From: Candidatus Caccalectryoclostridium excrementigallinarum
GTDB lineage: Bacteria; Bacillota; Clostridia; Christensenellales; UBA3700
Length of the DNA: 64,000 nucleotides
Reading direction: 5' to 3'
Assembly: GCA_018714485.1 (NCBI GenBank)
Contig: DVNJ01000001.1
Span: 94,985 to 158,984 of the forward strand
This document shows positions 2,928-64,000 of this stretch, one piece after another; the stretch's first letter is position 1; every line of letters starts with the position of its first letter. The notes under the pieces were generated by a model. It was not told the DNA's origin and did not search any database. It worked only from the letters and a program-made list of their open reading frames with translations. A program made the position numbers and the translations under genes.

Positions 2928-4319
2928 TCACACGGGCATTATCTTCTGCTCTACGCTTCCCACTTCCGTATCGACGTGATGCATGTTCGCCTGACGATAC
3001 TTGAAATAGTTCGTGGCGACCTGCGGGAAGAGCGCGTAAGAGAGGACGTCCTCTTCCTGCTCGATATATTCCGCGCATTCGGCGCGATATTTGTCCATTT
3101 CCGGTTGCAGGAGATCGGCGGGACGGCAGGTGATGCGCTCCTCGTCGCCGATGGCTTTTTTGACGACTTCGGGGTTAGGCTCTGCGGGAAGTTTTCCGTA
3201 TTCGCCGCGAAGCACGCCCTTAGTCTCGGAAGAGACCACCTTATATCTCTCGCCGTAGAAGACGTTGAACACCGCCTGCGTACCGACGATCTGGCTGGTC
3301 GGGGTGACCAGAGGCGGATAGCCGAGATCTTCCCTCACGCGCGGCACTTCCGCGAGCACCTTGTCGTAAAGATCTTCGGCGTGAAGCTGCTTGAGCTGGT
3401 TGACCAGGTTGGAAAGCATGCCGCCGGGAACTTGATAGATGAGCGCCCTGACGTCCGTCTGCAAGGACTTGTCGGTGAGGAAACCGTCCGCTTTGAGCCT
3501 CGCCGCAACCTTCTTGAAGTGCTCGGTCAGCTCGTTGAGCTTGACGATGTCGATACCCGTGTCGTATTCGGTACCCGCAAGCGCGGCGACCATGGGTTCG
3601 GTCGCGGGCTGAGAGGTGCCGTTGCCCAAAGGCGAGAGCGCGCAGTCGATGATGTCCACGCCAGCCTCGATAGCCTTTAAATAAGTGAGGTTGCCCACGC
3701 CTGCGGTCTGGTGAGTATGCAGGTGAATGGGGATCCTGATTGCGGATTTAAGCTCTTTGACCAACTCGTAAGCCGTGTAAGGGAGCAATATGCCCGCCAT
3801 ATCCTTGATACAAATGACGTCCGCGCCCATCTTTTCGAGCTTCTTGGCAAGCTCGACGAAATATTCGTTGGTGTGGACGGGGGACGTGGTGTAGCTGAAC
3901 GCCGCCTCGCAGATACCGCCGTGCTTTTGGCAGGCTTTCATCGCCCTTTCCATGTTGCGGGGGTCGTTGAGCGCGTCGAAGATACGCATGACGGTGATAC
4001 CGTTTTCGATGGACTTCTTCACGAATTCGTCCACGACGTCGTCGGCATAGTGCTTATATCCGAGCAGGTTCTGTCCGCGCAGCAGCATTTGCAAAGGCGT
4101 TTTGGGCATCGCCTCTTTGAGCTTGCGCAGTCTCGTCCAGGGATCCTCGTTCAAAAAGCGCAGGCAGGAGTCGAAAGTCGCGCCGCCCCAGCACTCGATC
4201 GAATAATAACCTATCTTGTCGAGCTTGTCGGCAACGGGCAGCATTTCGTCCAATCTCATGCGCGTTGCCGCCTGCGACTGGTGAGCGTCTCTTAAAATAG
4301 TTTCCGTTATCTTTACCAT
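2928..4319 (-). CDS. oadA: Oxaloacetate decarboxylase alpha / transcarboxylase 5S-like carboxyltransferase, without a fused biotin domain
   Basis: Motifs LRDAHQS, ECWGGATFD, IKDMAG, HLHTH, QVPGGMLSNL and GYPPLVTPTSQIVG. Confidence 0.88.
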   Translation of the reverse strand: MVKITETILRDAHQSQAATRMRLDEMLPVADKLDKIGYYSIECWGGATFDSCLRFLNEDPWTRLRKLKEAMPKTPLQMLLRGQNLLGYKHYADDVVDEFVKKSIENGITVMRIFDALNDPRNMERAMKACQKHGGICEAAFSYTTSPVHTNEYFVELAKKLEKMGADVICIKDMAGILLPYTAYELVKELKSAIRIPIHLHTHQTAGVGNLTYLKAIEAGVDIIDCALSPLGNGTSQPATEPMVAALAGTEYDTGIDIVKLNELTEHFKKVAARLKADGFLTDKSLQTDVRALIYQVPGGMLSNLVNQLKQLHAEDLYDKVLAEVPRVREDLGYPPLVTPTSQIVGTQAVFNVFYGERYKVVSSETKGVLRGEYGKLPAEPNPEVVKKAIGDEERITCRPADLLQPEMDKYRAECAEYIEQEEDVLSYALFPQVATNYFKYRQANMHHVDTEVGSVEQKIMPV

Positions 4320-4336
4320 AATTTACCTCTTTGATC

Positions 4337-5809
4337 TTAGAATACGCCGAAGCAGGCGAGCAATACGCCCGCAGCGACAGCCGAGCCGATAACGCCGGAG
4401 ACGTTAGGACCCATTGCGTGCATGAGCAGATAGTTGTTGGGGTTCTCCTCCTGCCCTACGTTGTGCGCGATACGCGCCGCCATAGGAACTGCGGAGACGC
4501 CCGCGGCGCCGATGATCGGGTTGACCTTGCCCTTGGTGAGCAGGCACATGAGCTTTCCTATCAGCACGCCGCCCGCGGTACCCAAACTGAACGCCACGAC
4601 ACCGATGACCATGATGAGCAGCGTCTGCTGCGTGAGGAAGGTGTCGGCGGTAGCCTTGGAACCGACCAAAGTACCGAGCAGAATGGTGACGATGTTGATG
4701 AGTTCGTTGCTTGCCGTCTTGGTGAGACGAGGCACGACGCCCGACTCTCTGAACAGGTTACCGAGCATGAGCATACCGATGAGCGGGATCGCCGAAGGCA
4801 GAAGCACGCCCACGATACCCGTGACGACCAGCGGGAAGATGACCTTCTCCGTCTTGGAAACGGGACGCAGCTGTTCCATGACTATGCCCCTCTCCTTCTT
4901 GGTCGTGAGCAGCTTGATGATAGGCGGCTGGATTATCTTGATCAGCGCCATATAAGAGTAAGCCGCAACGGCGATGGACGCCAGCAAGTGAGGCGCCAAC
5001 TTGGTGGTCACATAGATAGCCGTGGGACCGTCCGCGCCGCCGATGATACCGATGGAAGCCGCCTCTTCGCCCGTGAAGCCGATGAGGATAGCCACCGTGA
5101 AGGTGATGAAGATACCCAGCTGAGCCGCCGCGCCCATGAGCATACTGCTCGGGTTGGCGATCATGGGACCAAAGTCGGTCATTGCGCCGATACCCATGAA
5201 GATGAGCGGCGGGAAGATGACCCATTCGACGCCCTTATAAAGATAATAGAAAATACCTTCGTTGGCGACGATGCCCGTGGCGATCGAAAACTCGTTGCCT
5301 GCGTACATGGTGCCCGCCATGGCGTCCTGCACCGCCTTCAAGACGGTGAACACGCTCTCGTCGGCAGAGGTCATGGGCAGCGCAAGCAAGGTCTTCTGCG
5401 CCTCGGCGGAAAGCTCCGCCCAAGTCGCGGGCAGCGTTTCAAGCCCGGAGAGCGCTCCCTTGAACGCCCCGGGATCGATATTGTATATCCAGGCGATAAG
5501 CCCTTCCTGCGAACCTTTGAAGATGTCCGCGCCCGTCGTGGCGTTGGTCAATATGTATCCCGACGTTCCGTATAAGATGTTATACGCGCCCGGGATATTG
5601 ATGATAAACATACCGAAACCGATAGCCACCAGCAAGTTAGGCTCGAATTCTTTATATACCGCCAGATAGATGAGGATACACGCTATCGCCAGCATGATAA
5701 AGTTTTTCCAGATGTCCGCGCCCGTGGTCATGAAGCCCGTGCTCTCCCACAGGGTCTTCATCGCCTCCACGAACTCGAACGAGGAAAATGATGAGAATAT
5801 ATCTACCAT
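4337..5809 (-). CDS. oadB: Na+-translocating decarboxylase beta subunit (OadB/MmdB/GcdB family)
   Basis: Motifs IFPPLIFMGIGAMTDFGP, IGIIGGADGPTAI and HAMGPNVSGVIGSA; multi-pass membrane protein. Confidence 0.92.
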   Translation of the reverse strand: MVDIFSSFSSFEFVEAMKTLWESTGFMTTGADIWKNFIMLAIACILIYLAVYKEFEPNLLVAIGFGMFIINIPGAYNILYGTSGYILTNATTGADIFKGSQEGLIAWIYNIDPGAFKGALSGLETLPATWAELSAEAQKTLLALPMTSADESVFTVLKAVQDAMAGTMYAGNEFSIATGIVANEGIFYYLYKGVEWVIFPPLIFMGIGAMTDFGPMIANPSSMLMGAAAQLGIFITFTVAILIGFTGEEAASIGIIGGADGPTAIYVTTKLAPHLLASIAVAAYSYMALIKIIQPPIIKLLTTKKERGIVMEQLRPVSKTEKVIFPLVVTGIVGVLLPSAIPLIGMLMLGNLFRESGVVPRLTKTASNELINIVTILLGTLVGSKATADTFLTQQTLLIMVIGVVAFSLGTAGGVLIGKLMCLLTKGKVNPIIGAAGVSAVPMAARIAHNVGQEENPNNYLLMHAMGPNVSGVIGSAVAAGVLLACFGVF

Positions 5810-18670: not shown

Positions 18671-20230
18671 TCACAAGTTTTCCGGCATATCGTTTTCGAT
18701 AAGCAGCACGTCGCCCTCTCTCAATATGCGAGCGAACAGCTTCTGCGCCCTTTCAAGGCTGCTTTCGATATATATGCGCTCGGGCGGAAAAGCGTGCTTT
18801 TCCAAGCCGCGGCGCAAAAATTCCGCCTTCACGCCGATGAGCACGACGATGTCCGCCACGCACGCGATCTGCTCGCCGAGCGCCGTGTTGAGTTTTTCGT
18901 CTGCTTTTCCCGCCTCGGCGAATCCCTGAGCCGCCACCACCTTTCTGCCCTTGAAGAGCGAAAGCGCGTCGAGAGCCGCCTTAGCTCCGCGAACATTCGA
19001 GTTATAGCCGTCATCCAAAATCGTTATCCCGCCGCGAGTCTTCAAAACTTCCAGCCTGTGCGGCACGGGCGCGATCTCACTTGCGCGCTCGCATAACTCG
19101 TTCACGTCCTCGCCCAAGGCAAGACAGGTCTGCATCGCAAGACAAAAGTTTTCTATATTATGCCTGCCTACGAGCCGCAGAAAACAGCGCCTCTCTTCGC
19201 CGCCCGCTTTGAGGAAAAAGCGGCTCCCCTCCTCGTCAAGCTCGACATCGGAGAAAGAAACGCTGCGCTCTCCCGTGATAAATTTCCGCCTTAACACGCA
19301 TTTTTTGAACATATCGGCGCAAAGATCGTCATAGCCGTTGAAGACGGCGATCCCCTTACAGGGAAGAGAATCGATAAGTTCGCCCTTTGTCGCAACAATG
19401 TTTTCCAGCGACTTGAAAGTCTTCAAATGCTGCGGCGCTATCCCTGTGATCACGCCTATTTGCGGACGCACGATCGAGCAAAGGCGGGCGATGTCGCCCC
19501 TGCGCCCCGCTCCCATCTCGCAGATAAAATACTTCACTCCCTCCGGCATACCGGAGATCGCCTTGCAAACGCCCATGGGCGTGTTATACGAGGCGGGGGT
19601 CGCATACGCCCGCTCGCCGAGCAACGCCGCTATCATGTTTTTCACGCTCGTCTTGCCGTAACTGCCCGTAACGCCTATCACGACAAGCCCGCTCATGCTC
19701 TCCAATCTGCGCCGCGCTCTTTTCACAAAGCGGGAAAATATGAGCGCTTCGAGAGGATAGATAAAAGCGCGCGCCAAAGCCGCCCCGGGCAGAGTCAGGA
19801 GGGGGACAAGAAAGAGCGCCACAAAAGCTCCCTTACCGCTTTCGAATATTACCGCACCTATCTGAGTAAGCAGACGCGCGAGGAAAAAGTCAATGACGAA
19901 AAGTGCACAAAGCAGACGAACCGCACGCGGCGTAAATTTGAGATGCTGCTTTGATCTAACCCAAGTGCATAAAGTAAACAAGCAGGCGCTCAAGCTGAAA
20001 ACGCCGAGATAGAGCCAAAGCGCATATTCGGCGTCAAAGCTTTGCTCAAAGGCGTAAGCCGCCGCCGTGAGCGCCGCCCAGACAAGGGCGAGAAGGGCAA
20101 GGCGTAATTGCTCCCGCGCCGCCTTTTTCCCGAGAGAAAGGCGGTATCCCGCGCGCTGGATATGCCCCAAGGTTTCAAGGGATAATAAAGCCGCCGCCAC
20201 CGCGGCGACAAACGCGATCGCCCATTCCAT
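18671..20230 (-). CDS. murF: UDP-MurNAc-tripeptide--D-Ala-D-Ala ligase with an N-terminal membrane region
   Basis: Motifs GVTGSYGKTSVK, SYNTPMG, EMGA, PHRLE and DDGYNSN; adjacent to ddl. Confidence 0.88.
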   Translation of the reverse strand: MEWAIAFVAAVAAALLSLETLGHIQRAGYRLSLGKKAAREQLRLALLALVWAALTAAAYAFEQSFDAEYALWLYLGVFSLSACLFTLCTWVRSKQHLKFTPRAVRLLCALFVIDFFLARLLTQIGAVIFESGKGAFVALFLVPLLTLPGAALARAFIYPLEALIFSRFVKRARRRLESMSGLVVIGVTGSYGKTSVKNMIAALLGERAYATPASYNTPMGVCKAISGMPEGVKYFICEMGAGRRGDIARLCSIVRPQIGVITGIAPQHLKTFKSLENIVATKGELIDSLPCKGIAVFNGYDDLCADMFKKCVLRRKFITGERSVSFSDVELDEEGSRFFLKAGGEERRCFLRLVGRHNIENFCLAMQTCLALGEDVNELCERASEIAPVPHRLEVLKTRGGITILDDGYNSNVRGAKAALDALSLFKGRKVVAAQGFAEAGKADEKLNTALGEQIACVADIVVLIGVKAEFLRRGLEKHAFPPERIYIESSLERAQKLFARILREGDVLLIENDMPENL

Positions 20231-20930
20231 AAAACACCCCGTTGACAAAATTTCTGATCAAACTCAGCGTCTTATTGACCTCGTCGAGATAACAAAAATG
20301 TCCGCCTTCAAGCATGACAAGCCGCGAGTTTTTTATCCTCTTGTGCATTTTATGCGCCATATAGGGCGGCGTGTCCCTGTCTTTTTTGCCCCAGATCAGC
20401 AATACGGGCTTTTTTATGCTGCAAAGAGCGTCGTCCTGATATGTGTTGACGATGTTCACGAAAGTGCGCTTCATGAGCGGCGAGAGCGCCCTAAAATCGG
20501 GCGAGCCGCAGTCGGACAGATCGCGGCGCAGCAGCTTTTTCAGTGCGTATTTGCATTTTCGGGCAAGTCTTTTCAAGGTCGGACGCGGCTTGACGCCCGC
20601 TCCGTCCATGATGACAAGCGCTTTTATCCTTTGCTCGAGGGCAAGTTCGAGCGCCACTCTGCCGCCGAAGGAATGCGCGATGACGACGACCCGCTCCGCC
20701 CTTTCTTTTTCAAGTATACTCTTTACTCCGTCTACAAAGTCGTGCAAGAAATAGACATGTTCGGCGCCCGTCTGTCCGTGACCGTAAAAATCGGGCGCGA
20801 TACAGCGATAGGTGTCGCTCAAACTGTCGATAAGCGGCATCATCGAGGCGTACGATCCGCCCCAGCCATGCAAAAAAAGAAGGGTTTTTTCGCCCTTGCC
20901 CTTGACGATATAGTGCATTTGCTCTTCCAT
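20175..20930 (-). CDS. Alpha/beta-fold hydrolase
   Basis: Motifs FLHGWGG, AHSFGG nucleophile elbow, WGKKDRDTP and GGHF. Confidence 0.9.
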   Translation of the reverse strand: MEEQMHYIVKGKGEKTLLFLHGWGGSYASMMPLIDSLSDTYRCIAPDFYGHGQTGAEHVYFLHDFVDGVKSILEKERAERVVVIAHSFGGRVALELALEQRIKALVIMDGAGVKPRPTLKRLARKCKYALKKLLRRDLSDCGSPDFRALSPLMKRTFVNIVNTYQDDALCSIKKPVLLIWGKKDRDTPPYMAHKMHKRIKNSRLVMLEGGHFCYLDEVNKTLSLIRNFVNGVFYGMGDRVCRRGGGGFIIP

Positions 20931-58462: not shown

Positions 58463-59863
58463 TCAGAGAAGTTCGGCGTTATAAAGAGCGGGCTTCAAAA
58501 AGGGATTTTGAGGCATCTTGTTTATCCTGAAAACAAAGGTGAGGACGGTGAAGACGCAAGCCGCGCTTCCCGCCAGCAGCCACGACGCGGGGACCGCCCA
58601 ATATATCCCCTCTATTCCGTAAAAATGCTCGAAAAGATAAGAAAACGCGACTCTGCCCAATATGGACGAAACGGTCGTCATGAAGAAGAATTTCATCTTC
58701 GCCACGCCCTTGAAGAGCGATTGACAGAGCAAAATAATGCCCATGAAAACATAGCCGTAGACCATGACTTGCAGAAAGCGTGCGCCCACTTCGACGACCT
58801 TTTCGCCCTCCCCTTCGCCCACGAAAGCCTGCGAGAGCGGCACGCAAAGCAGCGTCCCGAGAGCGATGGCGACCGCCGCGTTCAAAAGGCAGAGCCAAAG
58901 GCTGTCTTTGAAGCCGGAAACAATGCGCATGCGCTTGTTTGCGCCCCAATTTTGCGCATAATAGTTGGTCAGGGCGTTGGTGTAACCGCGGAAGGGAGTT
59001 TGCATGAGCGCGTCGAGGCGCGTGGCGTTGTTCACGCCCGCCATGACGTCGGTGTCGTAAGTGTTGACCAGCCCCTGAACGGCTATCCTGCCCGCGTAGA
59101 CGACCACTTGCTGCAAGCCCACGGTAAGCCCGTAGCCCATGCAGGTTGAGAAGAGTTTTTTGTCGAAAACCCATTCTTTACGGCACAAATGCAGCACTTC
59201 CACCCTCTTTCTCACATAGATAGCGCAGAGAATAACGGTGAGCGCCTGCGCCGCGATCGTGGCGATCGCCGCGCCCTCGATGCCCAAGGGCGTATGCACG
59301 ACGAGGACGACGTCGAGCACGGCGTTGAGGATCACCCCGCCGCCCAAAAACACGAGCGGAGCGGCGGAGTTGCCCACCGCGCGCATGGAAAACATATAGT
59401 AATTATACAAAAAAGTGAAAACGCCACCCGCGAAAATTATCTTCAAATAAGAATCCGCGGGAGGGATCGCCTCGGCGGGCGTTCCCAGCCAAATGAGGAA
59501 ATATTCGCTCAGTCCCACGCAGAGCGCGCTGAGCACCACGGTGAAGACGCAGCCCGCGATCATGCCCGTGGAGAGGACGCGCTTTAAGGTTTTTATGTCC
59601 CCCTTGCCGAAATATTGCGACAAGATGACTCCCGTGCCCATCGCCAAGCCCATCAGGAAATTTATAACTATGGACATTATGGGAGTGGCGACGCCCACGC
59701 CCGCGAGCGCGACGCTGCCCAAGTTCTGACCGATGATTATGCTGTCGACGGCGTTATAGAGCTGTTGCAGAAAGTCGGAGAGCATAAAAGGCAGGGCAAA
59801 CCTTGCTATCGTCGCAAAATGTCTGCCCTGCGTAAGATCGGTTGTCGAATGTCTGCTGCCCGT
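58463..59863 (-). CDS. MATE family efflux transporter; the conserved N-terminus implies a non-canonical ACG start at 59863
   Basis: DLTQG...RFALPFMLSDFLQQLYNAVDSIIIG, RAVGNS, LNAVLD and GIEGAAIAT; SD AAGGAGG 6 nt before ACG; first in-frame ATG (59785) lies inside TM1. Confidence 0.85.
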   Translation of the reverse strand, partial: TGSRHSTTDLTQGRHFATIARFALPFMLSDFLQQLYNAVDSIIIGQNLGSVALAGVGVATPIMSIVINFLMGLAMGTGVILSQYFGKGDIKTLKRVLSTGMIAGCVFTVVLSALCVGLSEYFLIWLGTPAEAIPPADSYLKIIFAGGVFTFLYNYYMFSMRAVGNSAAPLVFLGGGVILNAVLDVVLVVHTPLGIEGAAIATIAAQALTVILCAIYVRKRVEVLHLCRKEWVFDKKLFSTCMGYGLTVGLQQVVVYAGRIAVQGLVNTYDTDVMAGVNNATRLDALMQTPFRGYTNALTNYYAQNWGANKRMRIVSGFKDSLWLCLLNAAVAIALGTLLCVPLSQAFVGEGEGEKVVEVGARFLQVMVYGYVFMGIILLCQSLFKGVAKMKFFFMTTVSSILGRVAFSYLFEHFYGIEGIYWAVPASWLLAGSAACVFTVLTFVFRINKMPQNPFLKPALYNAELL

Positions 59864-59875
59864 AAGGCGCCTCCT

Positions 59876-61540
59876 TTATCCGAGCATATTGTTGAGCGCG
59901 CTGACAAGAGCGTTGACGGACGCCACGATGATGTCGCTGTGAACTCCCGCGCCCCAGATGAGCTTATCTTCGCCCTCTTTTTGCAGGGCGACATAAGACA
60001 CCGCGAGCGACTTTGACGTGCGCGTCAAGGCGTGCTCCTGATAAGTTTCGATATGATAATCGAAAGGCACGACGCTCTTTATCGCCTCGTTCACGGCGTT
60101 GAGCCTGCCGTTGCCGAAGCCTTCGAGGACTTTCCTTTCGCCGTTCATCTCGAGCGTCACGACCGCGTCGATATTGCCGTCGACCTGCTTATAGTGGTGC
60201 TCAACGACTTTGATGGGCGAGGTCAGATTGACGTATTCTTTCTCGAATATCTCCTTGACCTCGTCGGGCGAAAGCTCCTTATGCCTGTGGTCGGAGACTG
60301 ATTTGACCTTATAGCCCAAGTCTTCGCGCATTTTCGCGGGCAAGTTGATGCCGAAGCGCGTCTCGAGCAGATAGCCTATGCCGCCCTTGCCCGACTGGCT
60401 GTTGATACGAATGACGTCGCCGTCATACTGCCTGCCCACGTCCTTGGGATCGATGGGCAGATAAGGGACCGTCCAACGGTCTTTTTCCTTTTCCTCGTGA
60501 TATTTCATGCCCTTGGCGATCGCGTCCTGATGCGAGCCCGAGAACGCGGCGAACACGAGCGCGCCGCCGTAAGGCTGGCGGGGGTTGACCTTCATGTCGG
60601 TGAAGCGTTCGTATTCCTCGACCAGCGCGGGCATATTCGTGAAGTCCAAGCCGGGATCCACGCCCTGCGAGAACATGTTGAGCGCCAAGGTGACGATATC
60701 CACGTTACCCGTGCGTTCGCCGTTGCCGAACAGCGTACCTTCCACTCTGTCCGCGCCCGCGAGCAGGGCGAACTCCGCGTCCGCGACCGCACAGCCGCGG
60801 TCGTTATGCGGGTGCGTGGAAACGAGCACGTTTTCGCGGTATTTGAGATGCTTGCACATATATTCTATCTGCTGGGCGTAGACGTGAGGCATGCTCTCCT
60901 CCACCGTCACGGGCAGATTGATGATGACTTTTTTCTCGCTCGTGGGCTTCCAGACGTCCAAGACCGCGTTGCATATCTCCAAGGCAAATTCCGGCTCGGT
61001 GCCCGTGAAGCTCTCGGGAGAATATTCAAAGGTGAAGTTGCCCTTTGTCTCCTCCGCCTCTTTGAGCAAAAGCTCGGCGCCCTTCACGGCGATCTCGATT
61101 ATCTCCGGCTTTTCCTTGCGGAAGACCTGCTTGCGCTGGGCAACGGACGTGGAATTATAAAGATGCACGACCGCATGCTTCGCCCCTTCGAGCGCTTTGA
61201 ACGTCTTTTTGATTATATGCTCGCGCGACTGAGTAAGAACCTGAATGGTCACGTCGTCGGGAATAAGTCCGCGCTCGATGAGCGCGCGGCAGAATTCGTA
61301 TTCCGTCTCGCTCGCGGCGGGAAAGCCTATCTCGATCTCCTTGAAACCTATTTTGCAAAGCAAGGTGAAGAACTCCAATTTCTGCTCTAAGCTCATCGGA
61401 ACGACGAGCGCCTGATTGCCGTCGCGCAGATCCACGCTGCACCAAACGGGAGCATGATCGACAAAGTCTTTCTTGACCCAATCGAAGCAAGGCTCCGGCG
61501 GCAGGAAATACCTCTTTGCGTATTTGCCTACGTTCTTCAT
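59876..61540 (-). CDS. leuA: 2-isopropylmalate synthase (LeuA2/yeast-mycobacterial type)
   Basis: SVDLRDGNQAL, FEYSPESF, HPHNDRG, GNGERTGN and RINSQSGKGG; Leu T-box upstream; SD AAGGAGG. Confidence 0.95.
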   Translation of the reverse strand: MKNVGKYAKRYFLPPEPCFDWVKKDFVDHAPVWCSVDLRDGNQALVVPMSLEQKLEFFTLLCKIGFKEIEIGFPAASETEYEFCRALIERGLIPDDVTIQVLTQSREHIIKKTFKALEGAKHAVVHLYNSTSVAQRKQVFRKEKPEIIEIAVKGAELLLKEAEETKGNFTFEYSPESFTGTEPEFALEICNAVLDVWKPTSEKKVIINLPVTVEESMPHVYAQQIEYMCKHLKYRENVLVSTHPHNDRGCAVADAEFALLAGADRVEGTLFGNGERTGNVDIVTLALNMFSQGVDPGLDFTNMPALVEEYERFTDMKVNPRQPYGGALVFAAFSGSHQDAIAKGMKYHEEKEKDRWTVPYLPIDPKDVGRQYDGDVIRINSQSGKGGIGYLLETRFGINLPAKMREDLGYKVKSVSDHRHKELSPDEVKEIFEKEYVNLTSPIKVVEHHYKQVDGNIDAVVTLEMNGERKVLEGFGNGRLNAVNEAIKSVVPFDYHIETYQEHALTRTSKSLAVSYVALQKEGEDKLIWGAGVHSDIIVASVNALVSALNNMLG

Positions 61541-61587: not shown

Positions 61588-61815
61588 TAAAAAAACTTTC
61601 GTCCCCCAAAGAGACGAAAGTTTACTGCCGTGGTACCACTCTTCTTCACGCTCCCCGACCATGTCGGCAAGCGCCTTTTCGGGATATAACGCTCCCACCG
61701 TCGCAAACTCATCGCCTGCACGACTCCCGGGCGAGATTCTCGCATATCTTCGTCCGCCTTTCACCTCACGGCGGCTCTCTGCACCCGAATTTGCGATACT
61801 GCTCCCGTTCACAGT
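61588..61815 (-). promoter_or_regulatory. T-box riboswitch, Leu (CUC) specifier
   Basis: Minus strand: AGTA, AGAGA, GGTGAAA loop, GAATCTC specifier (plus 61733-61735), T-box AGAGTGGTACCACG, terminator AAACTTTCGTC...GACGAAAGTTTTTTT. Confidence 0.93.
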
Positions 61816-61833
61816 CTTTTTTATATTGTCAAT

Positions 61834-61862
61834 ATTATATTATAAGCGCAAGCGGCTGTCAA
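61834..61862 (-). promoter_or_regulatory. sigmaA promoter of the T-box-leuA leader
   Basis: Perfect TTGACA-17 nt-TATAAT. Confidence 0.85.
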
Positions 61863-61880
61863 GTGTTAAGTACACATAGT

Positions 61881-62048
61881 GTGAAATTTTTGCGCGGATA
61901 AGAGCGAGCAATATGCGAGCATATCTTCCGCGCAAAAGTGAAATGTTTTTGCCAAGGCAAAAACGTGAAATGTACCCTCGAACCGCTGCGCGACGAGAGG
62001 GCACGTGAAATGTTTGCTCATACTGCCGCAAAGCGGCGCTTCGCAAAC
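61881..62048. repeat. Array of four GTGAAAT linkers, each followed by a different hairpin
   Basis: GTGAAAT at 61881, 61938, 61965 and 62005; inverted repeats at 61888-61937, 61945-61964, 61972-62004 and 62012-62048 start immediately after each linker. Confidence 0.8.
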
Positions 62049-62114
62049 GTTGCGGCTGCCTGCGGCGCATTAGAAAAAGTCTAATCAAGGCGTTGAAAAT
62101 CGCATTTTCGACGC

Positions 62115-62212
62115 CGTTACCTCTAAAATGCGCCGTGCGCATTTTCCGAATGAGCGAAGCAACGCGAGCGAATGAGGGCGGAAAGAGTGAATTTTTGCGG
62201 GTAAGGCGAGCG
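62115..62212. repeat. 98-bp direct repeat, copy 1
   Basis: Matches 62527-62624 with one mismatch; contains the hairpin AAAATGCGC-CGT-GCGCATTTT. Confidence 0.92.
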
Positions 62213-62526
62213 GCAGCGTGACGCTGCACCCAAGTAAAGTTTAATTCCCGCCACCGAAAACCACGCTTTTCGGTGAGCGCACCTTGAGCGGGACGACTGT
62301 TCCGCACGGAGCACAGCGCAGGCGGAAAGGGGTGAATTTCCGCGGAAAAGGCGAGCCACGCTCTCGCGCAACTCGCCGCGGAAAGAGGGGAAAACAGCAG
62401 CGGAGCGGGTCGGGTTTTCCCTCAAGCAAGCGAAAAACGAAAAGGCAGACGCGGCTTGTGCCGCACCTGCCCTTTTCCTTTTTGTTTTTCACTTAAATCA
62501 AGCGCGGCAAAATCGCATTTTGCAAG

Positions 62527-62624
62527 CGTTACCTCTAAAATGCGCCGTGCGCATTTTCCGAATGAGCGAAGCAATGCGAGCGAATGAGGGCGGAAAGAGT
62601 GAATTTTTGCGGGTAAGGCGAGCG
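62527..62624. repeat. 98-bp direct repeat, copy 2
   Basis: Matches 62115-62212 at an offset of 412 bp; one C/T difference. Confidence 0.92.
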
Positions 62625-62839
62625 CGAAACCTTGACACTCTCCCGCAAAAAGAGAGAAAACCGCGCCTCAAGAAAACGATCTTGCGGCGAAACAGAGTTC
62701 CGCCGCAACGCGCAATAGTGCGTTATATTCGCGGGGTCGTTTTCGAATGGCGGGGTTGTCTTTAAGCAAGCGAAAAATCGAGAGGCGGAAAAAGTTTGCA
62801 ACTTTTCCCGCCCCTTTCCTCGAGATTTTTCGCTTATTC

Positions 62840-63436
62840 CTATTGCATTAAAACATCCAACAACGAATCCATCGCCACGTCCGCCACGTCCGACGTGGTG
62901 TTCAAATGGCGGTAAACTTCCCTATATTTGAAGACGAGATGGAAGTCATCCTGATCGAAGAGGGCGCCGAGCGCGCGGTAATAGTGATTGCCCACCTTGT
63001 TTTCCAAGCCCTTGACCTTGATGGCTTCGTCTTTGGCGATATTGGGGTGATGCTCCATATTGGCGACCGCGCGGGAGATATGCTTGCAAATGTCCACGAG
63101 TATACCCACGATGTCCGTCATCGCCTCGTCGGGCAGGATACGGAAGAGGCGCAGCTCGTCTATCGTCGCCTTGGCGTAATCGAGTATCTCGTCAATCTGA
63201 CGCGAGAGGTTGAAGATATCCTTGCGCTCGATGGGCGTGATAAAGGTGTTGTTCAACTCGTCGATGAGAATGCGGCGGCGCATATCGCCGTCCTCCTCTA
63301 TCTTGACCACCTCGTCGGCGAAACGCTCTTCCTTGGTCACGCAATAGTTATAAAGCGCCGTCAAGCCCTCGCTCATGCAGTCGCACTGCGAGGACAAGAG
63401 ATGATAAAAGTTGATCCTTTTTTTGAACAGTTTCAT
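62840..63436 (-). CDS. DUF47 / PhoU-like phosphate transport accessory protein
   Basis: EEDGDMRRRILIDELNNTFITPIERKDIFNLSRQIDEILD and KYREVYRHL; ATG overlaps the stop of the upstream PiT gene (ATGA). Confidence 0.9.
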   Translation of the reverse strand: MKLFKKRINFYHLLSSQCDCMSEGLTALYNYCVTKEERFADEVVKIEEDGDMRRRILIDELNNTFITPIERKDIFNLSRQIDEILDYAKATIDELRLFRILPDEAMTDIVGILVDICKHISRAVANMEHHPNIAKDEAIKVKGLENKVGNHYYRALGALFDQDDFHLVFKYREVYRHLNTTSDVADVAMDSLLDVLMQ

Positions 63437-64000
63437 AACGATCCTCCCGGTATTATCGCGTTGAGCAGCGCGCAGATCGCCGCGCCCACGCCCATCGCCA
63501 CGGGAAAGGTTATCACCCATCCCGTAAAAATCTTGATAAATCTCAGCCAGCGCACTCCCGTCACGCGCTGCGCCATCCCCACGCCGATTATGCTCGAAGT
63601 CATCACCTGCCCCGTGGAAATGGGTATCCCCAGCACGGTGGAGAGCACGCTCACGGTCATGGACGCCGTCTGCGCCACATATGACTGCATGAGGTTGAGC
63701 GCGAAGAGCTTCTTCCCGATCGCATAGATGAGGCGGAAGCCGCCGAGCAACAATCCCGACGCGATCGCCGCGCAAAAGAGGATCACTATCCAGACGGGCA
63801 AGCCGTCCGCCGCCGCGGAAGTGTCGCTGAACCCGCCGCCGCACAAGACCGCCGCGAGCAGATAAACTCCCAAGCCCTTTTGCGTGTTATTGAGCGATAT
63901 CGCGCCCGAAAGCACGGTCATATTGAGCACTTGCGCGCCTTTGAGCACCTTTTCCACGCTGCGGGTGAAATATCCCGAAAGCGCGAAGACGAGCTTTTCC
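63433..64000 (-). CDS. PiT-family (PHO4) inorganic phosphate transporter, C-terminal part; 5' end outside the window
   Basis: NNTQKGLG, GGFRLIYAIG, LGIPISTGQVMTSSIIGVG, VRW and WVITFP; coupled to DUF47. Confidence 0.8.
   Translation of the reverse strand, partial: EKLVFALSGYFTRSVEKVLKGAQVLNMTVLSGAISLNNTQKGLGVYLLAAVLCGGGFSDTSAAADGLPVWIVILFCAAIASGLLLGGFRLIYAIGKKLFALNLMQSYVAQTASMTVSVLSTVLGIPISTGQVMTSSIIGVGMAQRVTGVRWLRFIKIFTGWVITFPVAMGVGAAICALLNAIIPGGSL

Follow-up and report, generated by a model that had tools for sequence, protein, structure and literature searches.

Repetitive extragenic palindromes and bacterial interspersed mosaic elements (REP/BIME) of enterobacteria and pseudomonads are many-copy intergenic palindromes arranged in mosaics, often between convergent genes or near terminators, and patchy among relatives. 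Miniature inverted-repeat transposable elements (MITEs) and the pneumococcal BOX elements are non-coding modular repeats with a variable number of internal units. The CsrB/RsmZ sponge small RNAs (sRNAs) are tandem hairpins that carry their motif mostly in the loops, and their genes are single or few. Here we describe an array of hairpins alternating with a constant 7-nt linker, GTGAAAT, next to leuA of Candidatus Caccalectryoclostridium excrementigallinarum (Bacillota; Clostridia; Christensenellales; UBA3700). The window, by which we mean the whole stretch of DNA analysed, comprises 64,000 nucleotides, positions 94,985 to 158,984 of contig DVNJ01000001.1 (assembly GCA_018714485.1); all positions below are counted from its first letter.

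The closest described system is Gut-1 (RF01706). In the original report, Gut-1 is rated as a likely non-coding RNA ('RNA? Y'), not cis-regulatory ('n'), and as 'Human gut only', from environmental sequence only (Weinberg et al. 2010, Genome Biol 11:R31, PMC2864571). In its seed alignment, short hairpins stand directly between linkers that read GUGAAAU or GUGAUAU; several of the seeds come from one contig, so that multiple copies per contig are already visible in the published material (PMC2864571, supplement 4). Literature searches for Gut-1 found only one benchmark paper beyond the original paper, and of 374 papers containing the 7-mer string, the 15 listed deal with microRNAs and unrelated topics.

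We put at about 60% the probability that the array of the window is a Gut-1-class mosaic palindromic repeat resembling REP/BIME, and not a regulator specific to leuA. This reading draws on its resemblance to Gut-1, its copy number, its mosaic make-up, the spacers of relatives at this locus, which are short or lack an array, the covariation of its stems and the reassortment of its hairpins, each of which was observed. New here are a long-hairpin variant with an extra 5′ hairpin, a mosaic, many-copy and patchy context with reassorting cassettes, and a conflict between the signals for the strand that folds.

Organization of the Array

An earlier note, made from the letters of the window alone, had described four GTGAAAT linkers with flush hairpins, and both the positions and the inverted repeats were found again on the + strand. 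The linkers start at 61881, 61938, 61965 and 62005, and a hairpin begins flush after each. Hairpins H1, H2 and H3 each run exactly to the next linker, and directly after H4 stands GTTGCGG, a motif that also ends short arrays in a genome of the same genus, G006. The features are as follows.

61881..62055, + strand: Gut-1-type array with four GTGAAAT linkers, hairpins H1 to H4 and GTTGCGG as 3′ end motif; one of 29 copies aligned
61881..61887, + strand: linker 1 (GTGAAAT); in the consensus fold its last AU pairs with the first GU of the next linker, and GAA is unpaired
61888..61937, + strand: hairpin H1, 50 nt, with an 11-bp foot; arms TTTTGCGCGGA/TCCGCGCAAAA, 100% complementary
61938..61944, + strand: linker 2 (GTGAAAT)
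61945..61964, + strand: hairpin H2, 20 nt, with a terminator-like score on the − strand
61965..61971, + strand: linker 3 (GTGAAAT)
61972..62004, + strand: hairpin H3, 33 nt, with one A·C mismatch and an inner CGC/GCG helix
62005..62011, + strand: linker 4 (GTGAAAT)
62012..62048, + strand: hairpin H4, 37 nt, enclosing GCCGC-AAA-GCGGC

The array is real and not a product of chance. In 2000 first-order Markov simulations of the 1-kb spacer, no three identical 7-mers came with two flush stems of five or more Watson–Crick pairs, and the real spacer gives one such arrangement. A stricter test, demanding four linkers and three flush stems of at least six pure Watson–Crick pairs, found nothing in 200 whole-window simulations, but the real array fails it too because of the A·C pair in H3; hence, the looser test was used. 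The segment 61875-62075 folds at −81.6 kcal/mol on the + strand (z −3.97) and at −70.1 kcal/mol on the − strand (z −3.25), with 0/200 shuffles as good in either case. Counted on both strands of the whole window, GTGAAAT occurs 17 times against 7.48 ± 3.02 in 100 shuffles. Since two of these 100 shuffles also reach 17, the excess is local and not window-wide. The remaining GTGAAAT pairs of the window (9782/9818 and 22457/22511) lie inside open reading frames (ORFs) and have no hairpins.

Several other kinds of element were set aside. Going by anatomy alone, CRISPR does not fit a constant part of only 7 nt with palindromes as the variable parts; type III toxin-antitoxin RNA arrays have constant direct repeats beside a toxin gene; and an integron attC array would be accompanied by cassette genes, of which there are none. 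A small ORF was also rejected, as the compensatory double changes described below are unlike coding sequence.

Kinship with Gut-1

In a permissive Rfam scan, the RF01706 model matches 61879-62016 (+) at 28.8 bits (E 0.012), over model positions 1-77 and with all four linkers aligned. The score is below the Rfam gathering cut-off of 50 bits because the hairpins of the window are much longer than those of the model, the alignment having loop inserts of 38, 10 and 23 nt in three loops; the best score of any copy in G000, the genome of the window, is 36.1 bits. The array nevertheless shows the architecture of the whole model, that is, at least three hairpins flush between RUGAWAU linkers, closure of the helices by A-U and U·G pairs with 3 nt unpaired between helices (29-copy consensus), and compensatory changes in the stems (23/57 pairs, 29 copies). 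The earlier note did not recognise a named family; the architecture is that of the Rfam Gut-1 RNA, although the match reaches 28.8 bits against the 50 required.

Among 41 genomes, two contain matches above 50 bits: G006 with nine, and G009, of the same family, with three. In a survey of 74 species of the family, 6/74 have a match above the cut-off and 16/74, in 4 of 11 genera, match at E ≤ 0.001; the tallies per genus, G000 left out, are 2/7 (g1), 3/7 (g11), 2/15 (g3), 8/23 (g9), 0/9 (g10) and 0/7 (g8). The same search of control genomes gave matches in 9/14 at E ≤ 10, in 1/14 at E ≤ 0.01 and in 0/14 over the cut-off. Sub-threshold matches on their own are weak evidence because control genomes also match at loose E, and the assignment to Gut-1 rests on the above-cut-off matches in G006 and G009 together with the family-wide survey.

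Judging by its architecture, the window array is a long-hairpin, divergent variant of Gut-1 and not a scored member. It shares with Gut-1 the flush hairpins between RUGAWAU linkers, the closing pairs with 3 unpaired nt, the covarying stems and the gut habitat. It differs in the length of its hairpins, which is 20–50 nt (other copies have an extra 5′ hairpin of as much as 56 nt) against about 13–23 nt in Gut-1. The settings differ as well: the published motif came only from human-gut metagenome reads, without host, context or function, and here it stands in small-genome, Clostridia-type metagenome-assembled genomes (MAGs), within a repeat mosaic.

Covariation and Reassortment of the Hairpins

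Twenty-nine full copies were aligned, 9 from G000 and 20 from the congener G001, and a consensus was computed by RNAalifold. In the consensus, each hairpin is closed by an A-U and a U·G pair formed by the last two letters of one linker and the first two of the next, and GAA alone is unpaired, in agreement with the Rfam model. All 29 copies have both AU and UG at each of the three feet that lie between linkers. At the foot of H0, an extra 5′ hairpin that stands ahead of the first linker in most other copies and is absent from the window copy, AU is present in 27/29 and UG in 28/29.

The stems covary. Pairing extends to 98.2% of the alignment cells, and both partners are altered in 23/57 pairs, compared with 13.6 ± 1.6 in shuffles (0/500 reach 23) and 3–8 in slid controls. 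The proposal that linker and pairing are kept while stem sequence varies is borne out by these values. At least three stem types of H1 occur among the copies, every one of them complementary. The loop of H2 is found both ways round (GCCAAGGC and GCCTTGGC), H4 comes in three alternative types, and H0 alone shows, at several of its positions, three types of pair. The hairpin types have reassorted from copy to copy: four-gamete quartets were obtained for H0/H1 (three), H1/H3 (one) and H3/H4 (one), and hairpin types are common to G000 and G001.

The arrays of G006 and G009 are convergent pairs around a central hairpin, forming units of 300–400 nt with inverted ends. The arms are not simple inverted copies of one another because their hairpin sequences differ.

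Copies in the Genome and the Repeat Mosaic

The assembly of G000 has 1.43 Mb in 33 contigs. It is incomplete, since aragorn finds only 25 tRNA genes in it, and the repeat copy numbers are therefore lower bounds. Fourteen same-strand linker clusters were found in G000, of which 12 make 13 arrays with a common 57/27/40 spacing, the other two being chance pairs in ORFs. Most of these copies have a 56-nt H0; the window copy and one copy on contig C12 begin directly at the linker. In G001 there are ~42 matches to the array. The further copies that the earlier note had thought worth seeking are thus present in both the genome and a relative.

The repetition extends beyond the array. When 61840-62850 was compared with G000 by BLAST, each 20-nt bin of 61880-62839 was matched 9–19 times and the flanks 1–2 times. 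Modules are ordered differently at different loci, and copies often lie at contig ends. Because all bins are repeated and module order varies, the array is the first module of a ~960-nt mosaic, 61880-62840, the other modules of which are as follows.

62096..62212, + strand: module B, a 117-nt unit found again at 62509-62624 (98 nt 99% identical)
62210..62231, + strand: module C, a hairpin with an ACCC spacer, standing directly after linker 3 in four other copies
62245..62495, + strand: module D, ending in a terminator-like hairpin, 62440-62475, that is fully paired only on the − strand
62496..62837, + strand: module E, a recurrent unit of ~342 nt, with − strand terminator-like hairpins at 62815-62781 and 62708-62682

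The terminator-scoring hairpins that close units of the mosaic score on the − strand only. At 62428-62494, a hairpin between an A-run and a T-run resembles a bidirectional terminator; the scan lists it on the − strand only, and its two internal mismatches are G·U only on that strand. In contigs of X1, X15 and X16 (one DNA run and two RNA-library runs), 62494 is joined to 62841 with 6 other letters between, so some strains are without module E. A second kind of hairpin array, built of a GC-rich hairpin plus ACCC(C), also belongs to this mosaic: one unit of it is in the window (62210-62231), and it is tandem in G001 (L036, L042, L043) and in another congener, G005 (L071).

Many-copy intergenic palindromic units in mosaics are what is found here, and a REP-like dispersed repeat, which the earlier note offered as one of several options, is the option that the many copies and the mosaic of repeats support.

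The leuA Locus in the Window and in Relatives

The neighbourhood of the array is laid out as follows.

59876..61540, − strand: leuA (2-isopropylmalate synthase), with HMGL-like, IPMS_D2 and LeuA_dimer domains
61607..61821, − strand: T-box leader of leuA (RF00230, 94.9 bits, cut-off 93), outside the repeat
61834..61862, − strand: leuA promoter, TTGACA, 17 nt, TATAAT (12/12 consensus), outside the repeat
62840..63844, − strand: DUF47/PhoU_div gene, start codon uncertain, whose 3′ end abuts the repeat mosaic

The DUF47 gene lies downstream of a gene for a PHO4 phosphate transporter; both are on the − strand. The leuA–DUF47 spacer contains no convincing ORF. The first linker begins 18 nt past the leuA −35 hexamer, so the array lies outside the transcribed leuA leader and is not part of the T-box leader; promoter and T-box are complete without it.

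A query of leuA plus its leader was matched in 5/5 congeners, and in all except G005 the DUF47 gene was reached beyond it. The spacers between leuA and the DUF47 gene, their lengths in the relatives read by eye, are as follows.

G000 (window): 977 nt, array plus mosaic
G001: ~1.2 kb, complete array oriented as in the window, ~230 nt more distant from the promoter
G002: ~15 nt, no repeats
G005: >1.4 kb, other repeats
G006: ~50 nt, no repeats
G007: ~560 nt, other modules, no array

The spacer of G005 (L071) holds five palindromes of the type GTGTCCAC-AAAA-GTGGACA and several other repeats.

Could the array be a series of sites at which a factor acting on the leuA promoter binds? Its closeness to the −35 hexamer is what such a proposal would build on, and the earlier note had singled out that position. 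The position stands; the meaning does not, because in relatives of identical gene order the spacer measures ~15–50 nt and is free of the element, which makes the placement beside the −35 an accident of insertion. G002 and G006 keep leuA, the T-box and the promoter region with these short spacers, G001 carries its array at a greater distance from the promoter, and the twelve other arrays of G000 adjoin unrelated genes. We regard regulation specific to leuA as very improbable.

The genomes G002 and G006 also differ in a telling way. G002 has ~50 copies of the module that flanks arrays in its close relative G006, yet no Gut-1 match, and in G006 at least 21 arrays adjoin this module. This contrast indicates that gain or loss affects the arrays as a class, and that they have no part in the control of leuA. 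In G002 (L210, C4 and ~50 other places), the flanking module is followed by other palindromic modules.

Conflicting Strand Signals

The signals for the strand that folds conflict: the foot pairs favour the GUGAAAU strand, and the loops and mismatches favour the opposite one. As the copies are related, the counts of loops, mismatches and foot pairs overstate independence.

On the GUGAWAU side, the U·G foot pair is invariant and is turned to U-A in the single ATGAAAT linker, and the fold of the window array is 11.5 kcal/mol better on the + strand than on the − strand. On the other side, 209 distinct short flush hairpins from many MAGs have, on the linker strand, triloops TNC in 66/105 cases and GNA in 4/105, and tetraloops T..C in 46/61 and G..A in 0/61; the closing pair is C-G in nearly all. 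Read on the opposite strand, the loops become c(GNA)g and c(GNNA)g (63% of triloops and 75% of tetraloops). Single non-Watson–Crick pairs on the linker strand are A·C more often than G·T, 10 vs 3 in one count and 14 vs 3 in another. The long variant of the window is without the loop bias, its H2 loop occurring in both orientations and its H4 loop being AAA. Nearest-neighbour energies of the two strands of the 209 short hairpins differ by a mean of 0.12–0.18 kcal/mol only, a difference so small that these energies do not decide the strand. The earlier note had favoured the minus strand; loop sequences and mismatches agree with that view, and the foot pairs and the fold energy of the window array favour the linker strand.

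The foot pairs would suit a multi-copy, trans-acting sRNA on the GUGAAAU strand, whose identical hairpin-foot/GAA sites would bind or titrate an RNA-binding protein or be cut by a nuclease, in a sponge-like manner. The U·G foot pair is kept at each of the four feet in 28–29 of 29 copies, and the 2010 rating of Gut-1 was that of a likely RNA without a cis-regulatory role (PMC2864571). The convergent pairs of G006 and G009 imply that transcription from either side meets a sense array first, and in 17/25 of these arrays the gene on the 5′ side has the same orientation as the array. A weak promoter-like site (TTCACA, 17 nt, AATATT, 9/12) lies upstream, at 61808-61836 (+), and points from the leuA leader to the window array. 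Against this, the 100 nt upstream of the copies contain no conserved block and hence no common promoter, and no + strand terminator-like site was found in 61881-63000. The stems are ~96% Watson–Crick, with 3 G·U among ~830 pairs, and the loop sequences are biased to the other strand. Copy numbers of 13 to ~42, patchiness within genera, array-free spacers in relatives and mosaic reshuffling would be unusual for sRNA genes. We consider this explanation possible but unlikely.

The loops lead to a different proposal, in which the element acts as single-stranded DNA (ssDNA) on the ATWTCAC strand, for example in the lagging-strand template or in transferred DNA, and a putative enzyme would nick, prime or recombine at the 7-nt spacer, thereby shuffling and spreading the cassettes. 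GCGNAGC and GCGNNAGC are mini-hairpin DNA motifs, far stabler as DNA than as RNA, with known occurrences at signals for ssDNA priming and in promoters of phage N4 (PMC13037366); PMC3201870 also supports the motif. On the strand opposite to the linker, the short Gut-1 hairpins share loop and closing pair with these motifs in the proportions given above. The excess of A·C over G·T mismatches becomes G·T on that strand, the stems are otherwise perfect, and loops are flipped between copies. The resemblance has its limits: the natural examples known (PMC13037366) are single sites and not arrays, and the long hairpins of the window lack the bias. Moreover, the conserved foot pair becomes a C·A mismatch on the ATWTCAC strand, the two strands hardly differ in energy, the mismatch counts are small and come from related copies, and no HUH gene was found in the array-bearing genomes with PF01797, G001 excepted, or with PF07282. 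We hold the ssDNA proposal to be quite doubtful.

A bolder form of it would make the Gut-1 arrays as a whole an ssDNA cassette system and not sRNAs. Their mini-hairpins would form opposite to the Rfam strand, and an enzyme other than RAYT, TnpA or TnpB would cut or recombine the 7-nt junction, exchanging, flipping and multiplying cassettes and seeding new intergenic sites across gut Clostridia, possibly also in Akkermansia. It is tempting to suggest such a system, but we give it little credence.

Mobility and Orientation

The array-bearing genomes tested for enzymes were G000, G001, G006, G009 (one complete contig) and G022. Y1 transposases of the RAYT kind were rejected as mobilisers, since none was found in four of the five and the one G001 locus read through has no array nearby; a link to TnpB/IS605 was rejected because no array-bearing genome has an above-cut-off match. 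The co-occurring HUH/RAYT gene that the earlier note had proposed to look for did not emerge, PF01797 being present in only one of these five genomes.

A screen of 1118 ORFs of G000 for paralogues returned only three families with paralogues at ≥70% identity. One of the three is a two-ORF unit (135 and 269 aa) with two copies on contig C20, at 18996-20236 and 59537-60794; it looks insertion-sequence-like by eye and is not beside arrays.

Four loci of G009 were fetched. Of the five composites in them, two directly follow tRNA-Leu genes (L064 1908-1994 and L065 1876-1958); in G000, no array lies within 2 kb of a tRNA. At one of the tRNA-Leu composites of G009, the linker sits in a perfect 18-bp palindrome, and the linker can therefore pair with its own complement. 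Locus L064 (G009:C1:262600-268950) has two 305-nt Gut-1 composites, 1974-2278 and 4076-4380, that are inverted and 95% complementary. They flank 1797 nt with a 274-aa ORF (hydrophobic stretches by eye, no Pfam family) and a 115-aa ORF, a composite-transposon layout. Among the ORFs beside the G009 composites, no Pfam family was found except one EamA transporter.

By crude ORF calls, co-orientation with the gene on the 5′ side is 6/13 in G000, and the figure of 17/25 given above for G006 plus G009 comes from calls of the same kind.

Wider Distribution and Transcript Data

A scan for the three-linker pattern, with one genome per species, gave at least 123 loci. Among the 123 matches listed, 61 have at least two flush hairpins, three have one and 59 have none, the last being chance matches or other tandem repeats. 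Fifty-five of the 61 are in MAGs labelled Clostridia, Eubacteriales, Ruminococcaceae, Acutalibacteraceae, Oscillospiraceae or Christensenella, including one Candidatus Coproplasma avicola; the hosts are ruminant, chicken, horse and human guts. The rest of the 61, again among the matches listed, are four loci in three Akkermansia-type MAGs, one in a Bacteroidaceae MAG and one unlabelled, and the non-Clostridia loci may be binning errors. DNA of the window itself occurs in chicken-gut metagenome runs. Sequence of the array and its modules is also found in metatranscriptome contigs (three libraries, two studies), although assembled contigs cannot show transcription, strand or ends, and stretches that they leave uncovered carry no information.

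Comparison with Described Repeats and a Proposed Mechanism

The comparison with REP/BIME is one of general features and not of sequences. The likeness is that of a many-copy, patchy, intergenic palindromic mosaic. The differences are that in REP/BIME the palindrome is constant, and here a short junction is constant while the palindromes vary; that the cognate RAYT (Y1 transposase) is not found in 4/5 array-bearing genomes; and that the conserved tetranucleotide at the 5′ foot of the REP palindrome has no counterpart, the constant element being the 7-nt GTGAAAT.

The arrays resemble MITEs and BOX elements in being modular, those of G006 and G009 in particular being two arms of a unit with inverted ends. 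They differ in that a target-site duplication, fixed termini and a related autonomous element were not identified, and in that the arms differ in hairpin sequence. The G006 and G009 units are bordered directly by further repeats; they showed no duplication, and no transposase could be connected with them. The copy in the window consists of one arm only. With CsrB/RsmZ, the arrays share the repeated display of one short motif in tandem hairpins, a likeness of working and not of family. The motif here is the junction between helices and not part of the loops, and there are 13 to ~42 copies.

We propose the following for a REP/BIME-like repeat. The array would form a row of hairpins, each closed by the A-U and U·G pairs from the ends of successive RUGAWAU linkers, with GAA unpaired. 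Modules of this kind would have colonised intergenic spacers, and the leuA–DUF47 spacer, once a few tens of nt long, would in this way have reached its 977 nt. The modules may persist and spread as DNA, through recombination between copies and through an insertion process that recognises the hairpin foot or the linker. Their effect on the host would be mostly structural, with stable hairpins in read-through transcripts or in ssDNA, alongside the modules that bear terminators.

Several observations weigh against a REP/BIME-like repeat. The linker is near-invariant across families and perhaps phyla (the Akkermansia-labelled MAGs), which suggests a conserved partner or function that a purely selfish element would leave unexplained. 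Gut-1 was rated a likely non-coding RNA in the original work ('RNA? Y', PMC2864571), and the arrays may be transcribed, since their sequence is present in metatranscriptome contigs. Y1_Tnp (PF01797) has no match in G000, G006, G009 and G022 and four in G001, where the locus read through (L027) has no array nearby. TnpB (PF07282) is over the cut-off in no array-bearing genome and only in G019, G024, G028 and G037. For the window copy, neither a target-site duplication nor fixed ends were defined. The leaning towards co-orientation in G006 and G009 counts on the same side; G000 shows no such leaning.

Gut-1 has been an orphan motif since 2010; through the window, a variant of it now has both a place in assembled genomes and a genomic setting. 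The question of what Gut-1 is has become testable: which strand folds, whether as RNA or as ssDNA, and which gene tracks its presence. For annotation there is a warning as well, in that sub-threshold Gut-1 matches and 'empty' spacers of ~1 kb in the small genomes of gut Clostridia are repeat mosaics, and not regulators of the neighbouring genes or missed genes.

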